Part shown: positions 4,767-56,111 of the stretch, piece after piece
Numbering within the stretch: the stretch's first letter is position 1
Layout of the letters: every line of letters starts with the position of its first letter
IMG/VR virus record: IMGVR_UViG_3300046025_000059
Coordinates: 1 to 57,119 of that record
Reading direction: 5' to 3' (one strand)
Source of the DNA: a virus
Taxonomy: Duplodnaviria; Caudoviricetes
DNA length: 57,119 nucleotides
Program-made: the position numbers and the translations under genes
The notes under the pieces: model-generated
Databases searched by the model: none
Told to the model about the DNA's origin: nothing
The model's input: the letters and a program-made list of their open reading frames with translations, nothing else

Positions 4767-5141
4767 ATGACAGAGACACCACCAGATCGACCGAACTACC
4801 CAGTGGTCCACGAGGACCTGACCGACCGTGCGAAAGCCACTGAGACGCCGGTGGCTGTGACCGAGGACAAACGCCACCGCGTGGTCTGCCGGGCGGCACA
4901 GGAGGCCGACGGCGTCGTCTGGCTGGCGAAGATCGAACACAGCGAGCGGGCGGACGGCGCCCCGTCGGTGGGGTTCCAGCGCTGCCACATCGACGCCGAC
5001 CACAACTCGCTCCGCAAGTGGTCGTCGGTTGCCACCGGCCGACTGTCGGGGCCGCAACGACTGCCGGCATGGGAACGGCTGTTCACGGTGTTCAACGCTG
5101 CGCTGCACGAGTACAATCGGGAGGTGCGTGCCCGTGATTGA
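4767..5141 (+). CDS. Hypothetical protein
   Basis: ATG after GGGGAGTGA SD; tightly packed in operon. Confidence 0.7.
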   Translation: MTETPPDRPNYPVVHEDLTDRAKATETPVAVTEDKRHRVVCRAAQEADGVVWLAKIEHSERADGAPSVGFQRCHIDADHNSLRKWSSVATGRLSGPQRLPAWERLFTVFNAALHEYNREVRARD

Positions 5142-5316
5142 CATCCGCCCCGCGCTAAAGCACGGGGGGTTCTCCTCACACTGTCGTAACGATCAGTGCC
5201 CCGAGTGTGAGAGCAAAGCCACCTCCCTCGTGATCCGGGCGGTCGACCGACGCGAGGTGTGGGGGAGGGCGCAGGTGGTCGAGTGCGACGACTGTTCGCA
5301 CAGGTGGTCGGTGTGA
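5134..5316 (+). CDS. Small Zn-ribbon protein
   Basis: GTG after GGAGGTG; CPEC...CDDC. Confidence 0.6.
   Translation: MIDIRPALKHGGFSSHCRNDQCPECESKATSLVIRAVDRREVWGRAQVVECDDCSHRWSV
5138..5177 (-). repeat. IS200/IS605 right-end-like hairpin remnant
   Basis: ttgacatccgccccgcgctaaagcacggggggttctcctc; TGA is the stop of 4767..5141; similar to copies at 47463 and 56064. Confidence 0.75.
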
Positions 5317-5615
5317 GTGACACGTCCGACGAGGGCGGGAAGTGGATCTGTCCGGATCATGGCCGCGTCGCCAGTGGTGGGCGGCAACACGGCGGCCGCG
5401 CCCGCGCCCACGTCTGCGGTGAAGATGGGTGTACTCGGACAGTGAAACGTGCGGACGTCGATTGGGACGCCTACCACTCCGCCCGTGAGAACGGCGAACG
5501 GCCGCCTTGCCCGCGCTGTGGGTCGACTGAGATCACGAAAGTCCCGGTCACAGGGGACCCGTTCCGGTGTTCTGACTGCAGCCACGCGTTTGGCGATGCT
5601 GGGGGGTGGTATTGA
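5313..5615 (+). CDS. Double Zn-finger protein
   Basis: CPDH..HVCxxxxC and CPRC..CSDC; GTGA overlap. Confidence 0.7.
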   Translation: MSDTSDEGGKWICPDHGRVASGGRQHGGRARAHVCGEDGCTRTVKRADVDWDAYHSARENGERPPCPRCGSTEITKVPVTGDPFRCSDCSHAFGDAGGWY

Positions 5616-5857
5616 TGCCTCGCCCCCAGACCTACCGCGATGTCGACCTCCCCGACGAGTGGGTCGACTGGCCGCCCGACGCGCAGGTGAACTACCTCGC
5701 GTCGGTGATGGATCGGGACGGCCTGCTCGAACTGGTCGGCGACCTCGCGGACATCCCCGACGACGAGATCGGCGCGCAGTCGATCCACAAGACCGGCCTC
5801 GCGCAACTGATCGTCGCCCTCGGCGTCTGCGACCACCCTGAGAGGTGTGAGCAATGA
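5615..5857 (+). CDS. Hypothetical protein
   Basis: TGATG overlap; acidic. Confidence 0.7.
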   Translation: MPRPQTYRDVDLPDEWVDWPPDAQVNYLASVMDRDGLLELVGDLADIPDDEIGAQSIHKTGLAQLIVALGVCDHPERCEQ

Positions 5858-6420
5858 ATAGCGACAAGGCTGCTGCCGTGCGCGATTCGATCAACGGCTG
5901 CCCGGACGTCGTCGACCCCGAGGACACCAGCGAGTACAGCACGTCACGCATGACATACTCGCCGGTAGCGGACGCCGACGTCACGTACACCGGCGAGTTC
6001 CTCAAGCCCGATCGGTCGTGCTACCGCCCGGCGTACGTCGAGCAGAGCGGCACCATTGGCGACGGCGAGGGCGCGACCCGCCCGGTCTACGTGGTCGTGC
6101 TTGAACCGCTGTGGCACCAGTCCGACGACGTCCGGTTGCTCTCGCCGGAACTGGTCTACGAGATTGCCAAGCACGACTGCCGGATCAGGTTCTACCCGCC
6201 CGAGCATCGCCTCGGCGGTGCAATCTGGGTGACGGACCGCTTCACAGAGGATCTGACGAACACAGACGGCGAGCGCTGCGAGTGCGGCAGTACGTACTTC
6301 AAGATCCGCGACGGGACACCCGAGTGCGCCAAGTGCGGTGCCCCTACCGAACAGACCGACAGTGCGCAGTTGACACTCACTGCAGCCCAGTACGCCGGAG
6401 GTGATGCCGATGCCGAGTGA
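5854..6420 (+). CDS. Hypothetical protein with C-terminal Zn ribbon
   Basis: ATGA overlap; CECG...CAKC. Confidence 0.75.
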   Translation: MNSDKAAAVRDSINGCPDVVDPEDTSEYSTSRMTYSPVADADVTYTGEFLKPDRSCYRPAYVEQSGTIGDGEGATRPVYVVVLEPLWHQSDDVRLLSPELVYEIAKHDCRIRFYPPEHRLGGAIWVTDRFTEDLTNTDGERCECGSTYFKIRDGTPECAKCGAPTEQTDSAQLTLTAAQYAGGDADAE

Positions 6421-6601
6421 TGCCGACGCCCACGAGTGGGTCCGTGTTGACACGCTCGCGTGGGAGACGGGCATCGACCGGCTGGACGAACAGCACCAGA
6501 CGGCCGTCTACGACTGTGACGAGTGCGAGGCGCGGCGCTGGACGCGCGAACGGCGGACGGCTACGCTGTCGTCGTTTGGGGGTGATGCCGATGTCGAGTG
6601 A
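6410..6601 (+). CDS. Small HxW/CxxC protein
   Basis: GGAGGTGA SD; HEW...CDEC. Confidence 0.6.
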   Translation: MPSDADAHEWVRVDTLAWETGIDRLDEQHQTAVYDCDECEARRWTRERRTATLSSFGGDADVE

Positions 6602-54623: not shown

Positions 54624-54687
54624 CGCGCCCCCACGCCGAGTGGGGTCACCCCTCCCTCCGGTTTTAGCTGAATTGAGGCGCTAAGCT

Positions 54688-55227
54688 ATGGCACGACGCA
54701 CACTCACCGAACAGGCCATCTCGACGGCAAACATCCACGTTGGCGCATACGATGCTGCGCTGGTGCGCCGGGTCTGCCCCCGCTGGGACAGCCTGTCGCC
54801 GGCCGCCCAACGCCGCGCACTGTCGTACATCTCCCCCGCCGAGACACGCGCGACCAGCAACACGACCACTGTGGGGATGGATCGGCACAACGTCGCCGCG
54901 AAAGTCCCGACAGAACCCGCCCCCGGCCCGATCACCCACATCCGCGTGGGGACGGGTACGCGCTCGCCCGCCTACAGCCGGCGTGATCTGTACTCGCCGG
55001 TCGTTGACATCCGGGTCGACAGCTACGAGACGGGCGAGGACTACGTGATCTGTTACGGCTTTCTCGCCACCAATCAGGGCAACATCGACGCTGACCTGGC
55101 CGAGATGGGGCTGCTCACAGAGAACGGCACCCTGCTCAATCACGGCCAGTTCGACGCGATTGCCAAACACTCCGGGCGGATCATCAACATCGCCATCCGA
55201 GTCGGCTTCGGCCCGGCCCCCGCCTGA
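54688..55227 (+). CDS. Tail fibre anchor-like protein
   Basis: NTTTVG, ITHIRVGTG, LAEMGL....G.LLNH. Confidence 0.7.
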   Translation: MARRTLTEQAISTANIHVGAYDAALVRRVCPRWDSLSPAAQRRALSYISPAETRATSNTTTVGMDRHNVAAKVPTEPAPGPITHIRVGTGTRSPAYSRRDLYSPVVDIRVDSYETGEDYVICYGFLATNQGNIDADLAEMGLLTENGTLLNHGQFDAIAKHSGRIINIAIRVGFGPAPA

Positions 55228-55254
55228 CCGTTCCCCTCCTGTCTACCCATCACG

Positions 55255-56067
55255 ATGACTGACAAGTCCGCCCCCGACGGCGCGGCCGATCCGCTGGAAC
55301 TGGCGGCCATCGCCCGCCACGGGGCCATGACCCCCGGCTGGATCGCCCCGCACGACCGCGCAGTCCTCGCACACCACACCGTCCTCGACGCCACCAGTGA
55401 CAACCCACTCGACGGGTTCCCGATCAGCCACTCCGGCACGTCGCTGACCGTGACAATCGGGTCCGGTGAGTTGTTCGTCGGCGGCCACTGGGGCGGCCGC
55501 GACGTCCCCACGGACGTGCCCAACGACCGCAGCCCCACCGACGCGCTGCCGCCCGACGACACGGCCACGATCTACGCGGGCGTCTCCCACCGCGAGATCG
55601 ACCGCGTGATCATCGGCACCGCCGCGAAGTTCCCCGACGGTGCCCACGAGAAACTGCCGCTGTATCGCGTCACCACCGACAGCGTCGGCGTCGTCGACGT
55701 GACCGACCTCCGCGACCACGACCCCTACCGGGCCGCCACCCGGCAGGAAACGGGCCATATCGACATGAAGGATCTTGGCCCGCTTGAAACGGCCGAACAG
55801 CCGCTGTATGTCCCCGACGGCTACACGCTCGCGCTGTGGCAATGGGGCTATATCCCGAACAACCAGCGGACGGATCGGTCGCTCACGATGGAACTGGTCG
55901 ACGAGACTGGCGAGACGATCCGCGAAGAGAACACACTCAACAGCACCGGCACACCGCTGGAACGCGTCAGCGGCGACAACTTCTATCGGATACGAATCCG
56001 CAACATGACCGACAACGCCACCTATCACGTCGGTGCCCGGTTCGTCTATTCGATCAGCCGCGATTGA
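55255..56067 (+). CDS. Minor tail protein
   Basis: LTVTIGSGELFVGGHW..RD; LPLYRVTTD..GV....DLR; shared C-terminal domain. Confidence 0.7.
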   Translation: MTDKSAPDGAADPLELAAIARHGAMTPGWIAPHDRAVLAHHTVLDATSDNPLDGFPISHSGTSLTVTIGSGELFVGGHWGGRDVPTDVPNDRSPTDALPPDDTATIYAGVSHREIDRVIIGTAAKFPDGAHEKLPLYRVTTDSVGVVDVTDLRDHDPYRAATRQETGHIDMKDLGPLETAEQPLYVPDGYTLALWQWGYIPNNQRTDRSLTMELVDETGETIREENTLNSTGTPLERVSGDNFYRIRIRNMTDNATYHVGARFVYSISRD

Positions 56068-56111
56068 CATCCTCCCCGCCCTCAAGAGCGGGGCTTTCTC
56101 CTCGAACTTCC
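56064..56111 (-). repeat. IS200/IS605 right-end remnant
   Basis: ttgacatcctccccgccctcaagagcggggctttctcctcgaacttcc; TGA is the gene stop. Confidence 0.85.

Follow-up and report, generated by a model that had tools for sequence, protein, structure and literature searches.

Short repeats recur across the 57,119-bp virus record IMGVR_UViG_3300046025_000059 of IMG/VR, which we analysed over its whole length and refer to as the window. They are probably the non-autonomous remnants of IS200/IS605 insertion sequences (IS) of the IS608 type that carry TnpB, and the intact ones among them are best read as terminal-only mini-elements that the geometry of their own target and end sequences has brought to lie at stop codons. 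The window is classed as a provirus of about 55% completeness and, judged by its protein content, is a tailed virus of haloarchaea. Within 57 kb it holds 14 robust copies, which fall into at least three end types. What are these repeats derived from, and why do so many of them contain the stop codon of the gene in front of them?

Results

Two families of repeats without a transposase

Family A, defined by TTGACATCCTCCCC with no more than two mismatches, has seven matches in the window against 0.32 expected, and none of 100 shuffles reached this number. The motif stands on the plus strand at 5138, 39712, 47463, 49145, 56064 and 56112, and on the minus strand at 31264. Family B (GTRAACTACCC, no more than one mismatch) has five matches against 0.76 expected. 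Its positions are 13983, 27672, 29177 and 43018; a match with one mismatch inside a gene, at 5687, was left out of the count. By these numbers the two families, which had been picked out in an earlier reading of the DNA (the original prediction), are real and non-random. The copies at 5138, 47463 and 56064 are alike over 54 nt, at 80–100% identity.

A covariance model built on 54 right ends from other contigs matches 47463 (E = 3e-12), 56064 (4e-11), 5138 (1e-8), 39712 (4e-8) and an inverted copy at 31236–31277 (1e-6). The match at 13283 is weak (E = 0.02). The model also adds a hairpin at 35908–35925 (E = 9e-4) that was absent from the first list of sites. The copies at 27119, 49145 and 56112 and those of family B escape the model because they lack the hairpin or the tail, and they were assigned by eye together with other evidence. 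Two further sites, 14186 and 32678, present the terminal motif only and are doubtful as elements. No match to the TnpA and TnpB families PF01797 and PF01385 was found in the window. As had been stated before, there is no tnpA or tnpB, and the copies are therefore non-autonomous derivatives and not insertion sequences proper.

Both families are right ends of TnpB-carrying elements

An exact scan of viral contigs for the family A 14-mer returned at least 118 loci, which range from 35 to 70% GC. After the 14-mer, most of these loci have a hairpin and then ATTCC; the arms of the hairpin vary between loci yet remain complementary. A strict hairpin test was positive for 76 of the 119 distinct copies among the matches listed, and 42 of these 76 have GAAT at the hairpin foot; GAAT is the right-end guide of IS608. 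An open reading frame (ORF) of 350–460 codons on the opposite strand ends 17–174 nt from the motif in such loci. This ORF encodes TnpB, with OrfB_IS605 and a Cas12f1-like TNB domain, in 10/10 sampled viral contigs, which indicates that the motif, taken as its reverse complement, is the right end of a TnpB-carrying IS200/IS605 element. The first 33–41 nt also match GenBank phages of many hosts, beside genes annotated as transposase or TnpB, and the annotated ISH12 of halovirus ChaoS9, which has both tnpA and tnpB, possesses the same type of end.

The stem of the hairpin covaries. Over 54 ends, double changes occur in 52 cells, compared with 19.8 after shuffling and 1–7 with a slid partner, and affect 4/8 pairs of the 8-bp stem; the rows were pre-selected for pairing, and the percentage of paired positions is thus true by construction. 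An Rfam search of 14 loci with full right ends gave no match, so that no curated RNA family covers this end. We also observed a third form of the family A end, a perfect palindrome of 40 nt whose hairpin is enclosed by the right-end tail on one side and by the complement of that tail on the other. It accounts for 15 of the 76 hairpin-bearing copies and was seen in viral loci L017, L047, L061, L070, L083, L099, L112 and L123.

For family B, the segment 27672–27722 is 92–96% identical to plasmid sequences of many haloarchaeal genera. In both haloarchaeal plasmids that were opened, it lies 29 nt from the stop of a gene on the other strand annotated as 'RNA-guided endonuclease TnpB family protein', and in the plasmid alignment the hairpin of this right end is long and interrupted. 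The terminal motif with a hairpin was also found at 13 AT-rich viral loci and seven times across hypersaline metagenome loci that total 395 kb; no TnpB-sized ORF adjoins these viral and metagenomic copies, and the link between family B and TnpB comes from the plasmids only. Family A and family B are both reverse complements of IS200/IS605 right ends. The identity first suggested for them is borne out by the adjoining TnpB (10/10 viral contigs, 2/2 plasmids) and by a layout that follows IS608.

The intact copies fuse two ends around one hairpin

Read on the minus strand, the copies at 5138, 47463 and 56064 consist of 18 nt, an 8-bp hairpin and 6 nt plus TCAA, 48 nt in total. TTAC stands directly before the 18 nt in 5138 and 47463. 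At 56064, it is the TCAA end of the 56112 fragment that stands before the 18 nt, with TTAC on the far side of this fragment. The hairpin foot reads AAAG in 47463 and 56064 and AACC in 5138. In the model alignments of these three copies and of 39712, TCAA lies 10 nt 3' of the hairpin foot. IS608 is described as having TTAC 19 nt before its left hairpin, where it is read by the guide AAAG, and TCAA 10 nt after its right hairpin (PMC3201880). Since the window copies follow this layout, their left part is a left end and their right part a right end, with a single hairpin between them.

The left-end module occurs in metagenome contigs at 70 loci, 64 of them distinct; a scan of viral contigs for it gave no match. 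In the metagenome it is located, facing inwards, on the left end of elements of about 1.4 kb, on gene-less elements of 350–540 nt (palindrome-associated transposable elements, PATEs) and on minis. At eight of these loci, minis have exactly the boundaries seen in the window, with the module fused to the right-end tail. The two hairpins of the longer elements are nearly alike, and those of L214 are identical over 20 nt. For Haloquadratum it has been described that the 1500-bp ISHwa23 and the PATE HqIRS46 collapse through repeat-mediated deletion to terminal-only forms of 52 bp, which the authors suspect are still able to move (PMC3119063). The 48-nt minis probably formed in the same manner: a full element or a longer PATE would have lost the core that lies between its subterminal hairpins, which are nearly identical. 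The collapsed form may itself also be mobilised in trans by a TnpA of the host.

Fifty-three nucleotides of the window have full-length matches in 63 plasmid records, and the records listed are haloarchaeal. One mini (L221:399-454, plasmid hits H102–H104) is 100% identical over 52–54 nt at unrelated loci of three other replicons from two genera, which hints at a recent spread of the mini or of its parent. The hosts of this identical mini are Halorubrum ezzemoulense, Halorubrum lacusprofundi, Halorubrum sp. PV6 and Halobacterium hubeiense. Class-2 minis were also found in other viral contigs. None of the ten ORFs downstream of them encodes a transposase, so these minis are solo and do not represent the left ends of full insertion sequences. 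Viral contig L034 contains three identical TnpB elements of 1390 nt with unrelated flanks. Each L034 copy ends in ...TGATGA on its left-end side, and the reversed target resembles an ATGA stop/start overlap.

Target and end both read as a stop codon

The terminal TTGA, GTGA or GTAA contains the stop codon of a credible gene at 5138, 13983, 27672, 29177, 32678, 43018, 47463, 49145 and 56064. Ten such sites had been proposed, and nine of them stand; at 14186 the upstream ORF has a non-coding composition. The geometry of the IS608-type code probably explains this position. Read on the strand of the gene, the target TTAC becomes GTAA and the end TCAA becomes TTGA, with a stop codon at positions 2–4 of both. 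An antisense insertion at ...NNG|TAA would consequently leave ...NNT|TGA in the same frame, followed by the element and by the old GTAA at its far end. Elements whose ends read ...TCAC or ...TTTAC would likewise rebuild TAG or TAA. Insertions within genes would be lost, and A/T-rich intergenic targets are few in DNA of 65% GC and a coding share of 88%, so that survivors would accumulate at stop codons.

GTAA does follow the element in all three full copies of the window, in 45/64 copies from metagenomes and in 5/5 copies from plasmids. At 4/4 family A junctions, T is the final base of the last sense codon, whereas T occupies the third codon position in only 10.3% of the codons of this genome (p = 1e-4), and an in-frame stop is immediate for all nine elements beside credible genes (p = 5e-5). 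The plus strand has 31 GTAA sites, of which eight are current stops and three more are displaced behind elements. Family B ends rebuild TAA or TGA. The copy at 27119 is a variant, in which the flank gives TA and the ...TCAC end gives the G of TAG; its far flank reads ATTAA.

RefSeq plasmids offer a view of the same junction in other genes. In four of five copies inspected, all picked because a feature underlay the match, the element TGA ends a gene, namely those for an integrase, LonB, a Tat-signal protein and a CBS protein. For lonB of Natrinema, both states of the site are available in this other replicon. The element-free ortholog, which belongs to another Natrinema, ends in ...CAG TAA, and the filled one in ...CAT TGA, followed by the element and GTAA. 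The pair is seamless, with neither terminal inverted repeats nor a target duplication.

A related strain in halite communities

Two halite-metagenome runs of one study contain the stretch. We compared contigs with positions 39000–57119 and interpreted only those parts that have contig cover in runs X1 and X3. Contig depth rises from about 5 to 135–140 where the bins contain 39712 or 47463 and reaches 28 at 56064, and many short contigs match 39712–39766 or 47466–47515 alone. These depth jumps and short contigs indicate that such ends are high-copy repeats in the halite community. IS200/IS605 elements of this type are abundant in hypersaline communities.

A related strain, X2, diverges from the window by 1–2% (about 98% identity). 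It keeps the elements at 39712, 43018 and 56064 without insertions or deletions, and its contigs break within 47463. At 49145, X2 has 2 + 4 + 19 extra letters (25), which give a loop, a second arm and a left-end box, and CTAAAG follows this full copy. Because X2 has the full copy, the 22-nt copy of the window is an internally deleted mini. The segments that are diverged or replaced between the two strains (51437–51556, 51828–53493 and 53545–53958) all lie more than 2 kb from any element. At the TAG-ccc-ATG junction of genes 49167–50684 and 50688–51107, X2 has 53 letters in place of 50681–50686. By its size alone, this insert fits a terminal-only mini that the window does not have.

Searches for further relatives returned nothing: a megablast of 39–57 kb against GenBank phages gave no match, a search of viral contigs with three window proteins found no related locus, and neither did a search of metagenome contigs with protein 27807–29180, though a 96%-identical protein, P0001, exists. 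P0001 has 560 aa, compared with 457 aa for the window protein, through an internal duplication of about 100 residues.

The individual copies

All copies described here read on the minus strand unless stated otherwise. Three are complete family A mini-elements. The first occupies 5138–5185, with GTAA at 5186–5189, and its first TTGA holds the stop of gene 4731–5141. The second, at 47463–47510 with GTAA at 47511–47514, provides the stop of gene 44398–47466 through its TTGA. The third extends over 56064–56111 and is succeeded by a 17-nt terminal fragment (56112–56128) and by GTAA (56129–56132); here the first TTGA contains the stop of gene 55255–56067. The internally deleted copy at 49145–49166 holds the stop of gene 47589–49148 in its TTGA and abuts the ATG at 49167. 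A longer family A remnant at 39712–39781, supported by the model and by its fold, lies upstream of the tape-measure gene and supplies no stop. Its right end has a hairpin with GAAT at the foot, and the remnant also includes a second stem and a box that resembles a left end. The family A copy at 31236–31277, likewise supported by model and fold, has the opposite orientation (plus strand) and is situated between genes 29320–31230 and 31318–31737.

The copies at 13277, 27119 and 35895 have a left-end box of the ISH12 type and a tail of the ...TCAC type. The one-hairpin remnant at 13277–13316, with ATCAA to 13321, was recognised by its weak model match and its likeness to the ISH12 ends of ChaoS9. 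ATCAA corresponds to a TTGAT target in reverse. The remnant adjoins the ATG at 13323; its flank, ATCAA, contains no stop, and none is supplied here. A similar one-hairpin remnant at 27119–27159, with ATTAA to 27164, was identified by eye against ISH12. The TAG stop of gene 26703–27119 takes its last base from the initial G of this remnant, and a single nucleotide separates the end of the remnant from the ATG at 27166. Like the copy at 49145, the remnant fills the entire gap up to AAG-ATG, just as the original prediction had it. The third, at 35895–35936 on the plus strand, is a left-end remnant with the hairpin that was added by the model, and it was compared with the left end of ISH12.

The most complete family B copy, at 27672–27749, joins a right end of 51 nt (27672–27722) to a left-end-like box, and its GTAA holds the stop of gene 27166–27675. 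The copy at 43018–43055 is an end with a hairpin of its own and contains, in its GTAA, the stop of the tape-measure gene. Two others are terminal fragments of about 24 nt: 13983–14006, without hairpin, whose GTGA holds the stop of gene 13723–13986, and 29177–29203, whose GTAA holds the stop of gene 27807–29180. The two doubtful sites are 14186–14245, a TTGACC..CCCC motif with a long-loop hairpin that the model missed and whose upstream ORF is not credible, and 32678–32712, where GTGAAC is joined to C-rich filler without a hairpin and the GTGA holds the stop of gene 32271–32681. ORF 13857–14189, considered as a gene that ends in the 14186 motif, was rejected on composition (GC at third codon positions 0.61, at second positions 0.62).

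Other features of the provirus

Gene calls are our own and were derived from ORFs and codon-position GC. Nearly all genes are on the plus strand, which is C-rich from 12 kb on. Protein matches include a C5 methylase, DUF7474 and DUF7342. The large terminase is encoded at 17045–18727, and portal and head-morphogenesis proteins are encoded as well; the capsid protein shares 48% identity with that of Halobacterium virus ChaoS9 and 41% with that of HHTV-1. A tRNA-Trp at 12763–12840 is the sole Rfam match in the window, both at the gathering threshold and at E up to 5. The tape-measure gene (39905–43021) contains a tandem duplication of 126 nt at 42228–42469; its counterpart in strain X2 has one additional 126-nt unit, and tape-measure length thus varies by strain.

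Several other repeats were noted. Four early reading frames close with the same C-terminal peptide, TDGGN.R..DTGTDY..GEDD (575–665, 3397–3487, 8492–8525 and 11216–11249). A 61-nt repeat at 26217–26277 and 36502–36562, 97% identical, encodes the acidic tail DTATDSDTAPRSAD both times; this tail ends frame 25883–26284 and, 10 kb away, stands near the end of gene 36294–36593. The 11-mer TGACACGTAGC, which begins with a stop, follows genes 29320–31230 (at 31228–31238) and 33726–34361 (at 34359–34369). Downstream of its second copy, the segment 34483–35634 has 60% GC and carries the sole long minus-strand gene, of 383 aa and without a family match; it is possibly an inserted cassette.

Discussion

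Identity, anatomy, target and stop geometry can be read from the elements themselves, and the empty and filled states from a pair of sites in another replicon. From these we infer that each window copy arose in the way proposed here, and that the copies now are mostly neutral and decaying. Several observations weigh against this view. Strain X2, the sole related strain compared, shows no empty site at any of the window junctions, so that insertion into this particular virus is argued by analogy, and the retention of copies in X2 is equally expected under selection. The target and left boundary described here are those of family A. GTAA is missing from 19 of the 64 metagenome copies; most of these also lack the hairpin and look like chance matches. 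Among 21 metagenome copies, the long open frame is the TGA frame in 11 (vs 2 and 5 for the other two frames, p = 0.014), and among 60 viral copies it is so in 18 (vs 10 and 5, p = 0.01), but such tests on stop-to-stop frames are noisy in GC-rich DNA. A strict mini-element pattern found no haloarchaeal representative genome among genome contigs and returned only eight bacterial matches that resemble chance; plasmids do carry the mini-element subfamily despite this null result. Finally, 47463 and 56064 are the top two terminator-like sites in 39–57 kb, and a side function of the hairpins is possible.

Could the hairpins have been kept for such a function? Exaptation as transcription terminators or as mRNA-stabilising stem-loops behind late genes, comparable to the REP (repetitive extragenic palindromic) elements of bacteria, appears unlikely to us, although it is the strongest of the competing explanations. 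The sense RNA does have a pyrimidine- and U-rich tail after the hairpin, but the U-run is short and interrupted, and the terminator-like sites total 10, compared with 9.5 in shuffles. Copies at 49145, 13983, 27672, 29177 and 56112 persist although a hairpin arm has been lost. Twelve of the 14 robust copies share one orientation (p = 0.013), as would be expected of functional 3' ends, but this bias fits equally well with the stop geometry or with insertion into the lagging-strand template, the plus strand being C-rich; IS608-type elements are described as targeting that template (10.1101/279083). The elements retained in X2 would suit exapted hairpins as well.

It is considerably harder to accept that the copies act as antisense mini-omegaRNAs or decoys, whose minus-strand transcripts would load TnpB of the host with a viral gene end as guide. 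The right end is indeed where an omegaRNA stops and its guide starts, full TnpB elements with the same end abound in the habitat, and a 489-bp PATE in halovirus HRTV-DL1 is reported to be strongly transcribed in antisense (PMC10544981). However, a scaffold of at least 100 nt upstream of the right end is absent, as only 34–51 nt of the right end are left in the window, and in full elements, where TnpB stops 17–174 nt from the end, the scaffold overlaps the gene. No Rfam family matches the elements at E up to 5, the window encodes no TnpB, and several copies have no hairpin. The match between guide and flank follows from position and hence is no finding. We give the least credence of all to the proposal that these are domesticated TnpA sites that promote shuffling of tail and receptor-binding modules. 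The copies at 39712 and 43018 do flank the tape-measure gene, and 47463, 49145 and 56064 are located among fibre-like genes; but the final 30% of the window contains 6 of the 16 sites (p = 0.36), and the claimed concentration at tail-module boundaries is not supported. The strain differences, at 51.4–54.1 kb, stay more than 2 kb away from any element, and the window has neither tnpA nor any other Y1 transposase. Moreover, an element with one hairpin has only the left-type guide AAAG, and by the rules of IS608 its TCAA end may not be cleavable. Decay fits better than domesticated sites or mini-guide RNAs with strain X2, which at about 98% identity keeps copies of which one is truncated only in the window.

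Remnants of IS200/IS605 elements at stop codons, the explanation that we prefer, come closest to a fourth reading in the original prediction, that of neutral scars tolerated only at stop codons. That reading can be made more precise, in that complete terminal-only minis are among the copies and the link to stops comes from the target and end sequences. Look-alike sequences behind stop codons can thus be explained without a new system, by repeated IS200/IS605 invasion followed by loss of the core. A rule for annotation would follow: where a gene in a haloarchaeal or other GC-rich replicon now reads ...T TGA C-A-T-C-C at its end, with a hairpin behind it, the original ending was probably ...G TAA. 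More generally, stop codons may be landing sites that are tolerated owing to the conserved TTAC/TCAA code of the IS608 type. More tentatively, and with the odds against us, we speculate that IS608-type ends are built such that antisense insertion at G|TAA is nearly protein-neutral. Stop codons would then be a safe harbour in gene-dense viruses and plasmids, both for the elements and for minis moved in trans, and in such viruses they might have shaped much of the DNA between genes, as well as several stop codons and the final residues of some proteins. As a collapsed scar separates target from flank, the site could also be immune to homing cuts by TnpB.

Part of this is already in print: terminal-only PATEs, PATEs in haloviruses (PMC10544981) and IS605 hairpins that overlap gene ends (PMC2775950). 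What is new here is the density (a single provirus holds the 14 robust copies, with three or more types of end among them), the explicit geometry by which stops are rebuilt, and the empty/filled pair. A statement of the stop-rebuilding rule was not found in the open-access literature searched.

How do the window copies compare with known systems? The closest are the terminal-only PATEs of Haloquadratum walsbyi, HqIRS46 and derivatives of ISHwa23, which are described as measuring about 52 bp with a target of 4–5 nt and as having one palindrome between fused termini (PMC3119063). In agreement with this size, 5138, 47463 and 56064 measure 48 + 4 nt. According to the same description, these PATEs are haloarchaeal, stem from elements of the IS605/IS1341 type and have neither inverted terminal repeats nor target duplication, again like the window copies. 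Unlike them, the window copies, compared here by description, reside in a tailed provirus at 14 robust sites per 57 kb rather than in a cellular genome, and the account of terminal-only PATEs that was consulted makes no mention of a link to stop codons. The minis also resemble IS608 of Helicobacter pylori, for which PMC3201880 describes a TTAC target about 19 nt before the left hairpin (18 in the window), an AAAG foot and no target duplication. In contrast to the window copies, with one hairpin and no genes, IS608 has tnpA, tnpB and two hairpins. ISH12 (= ISH1-8) in ChaoS9 (MK310226) shares the right-end motif, hairpin and tail, as well as the left box seen at 13277, 27119 and 35895, but is a complete element of 1.9 kb with tnpA and tnpB, an end reading ...TCAC and a TTGAT-like left flank. 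REP elements, as they are described, are also short intergenic hairpins akin to IS200/IS605 ends and often lie behind genes; they depend on a domesticated RAYT (REP-associated tyrosine transposase, TnpA-REP) and have a tetranucleotide of their own, whereas the window has ordinary IS608-type ends and no Y1 transposase. Stem-loops derived from IS605 in Borrelia, finally, are likewise free of transposase and lie behind lipoprotein genes, overlapping their last 8 nt and the stop codon (PMC2775950). They differ from the window copies in that they belong to bacterial plasmids and derive from left ends, and the description consulted does not state a stop-rebuilding rule of the kind that the haloarchaeal copies suggest.

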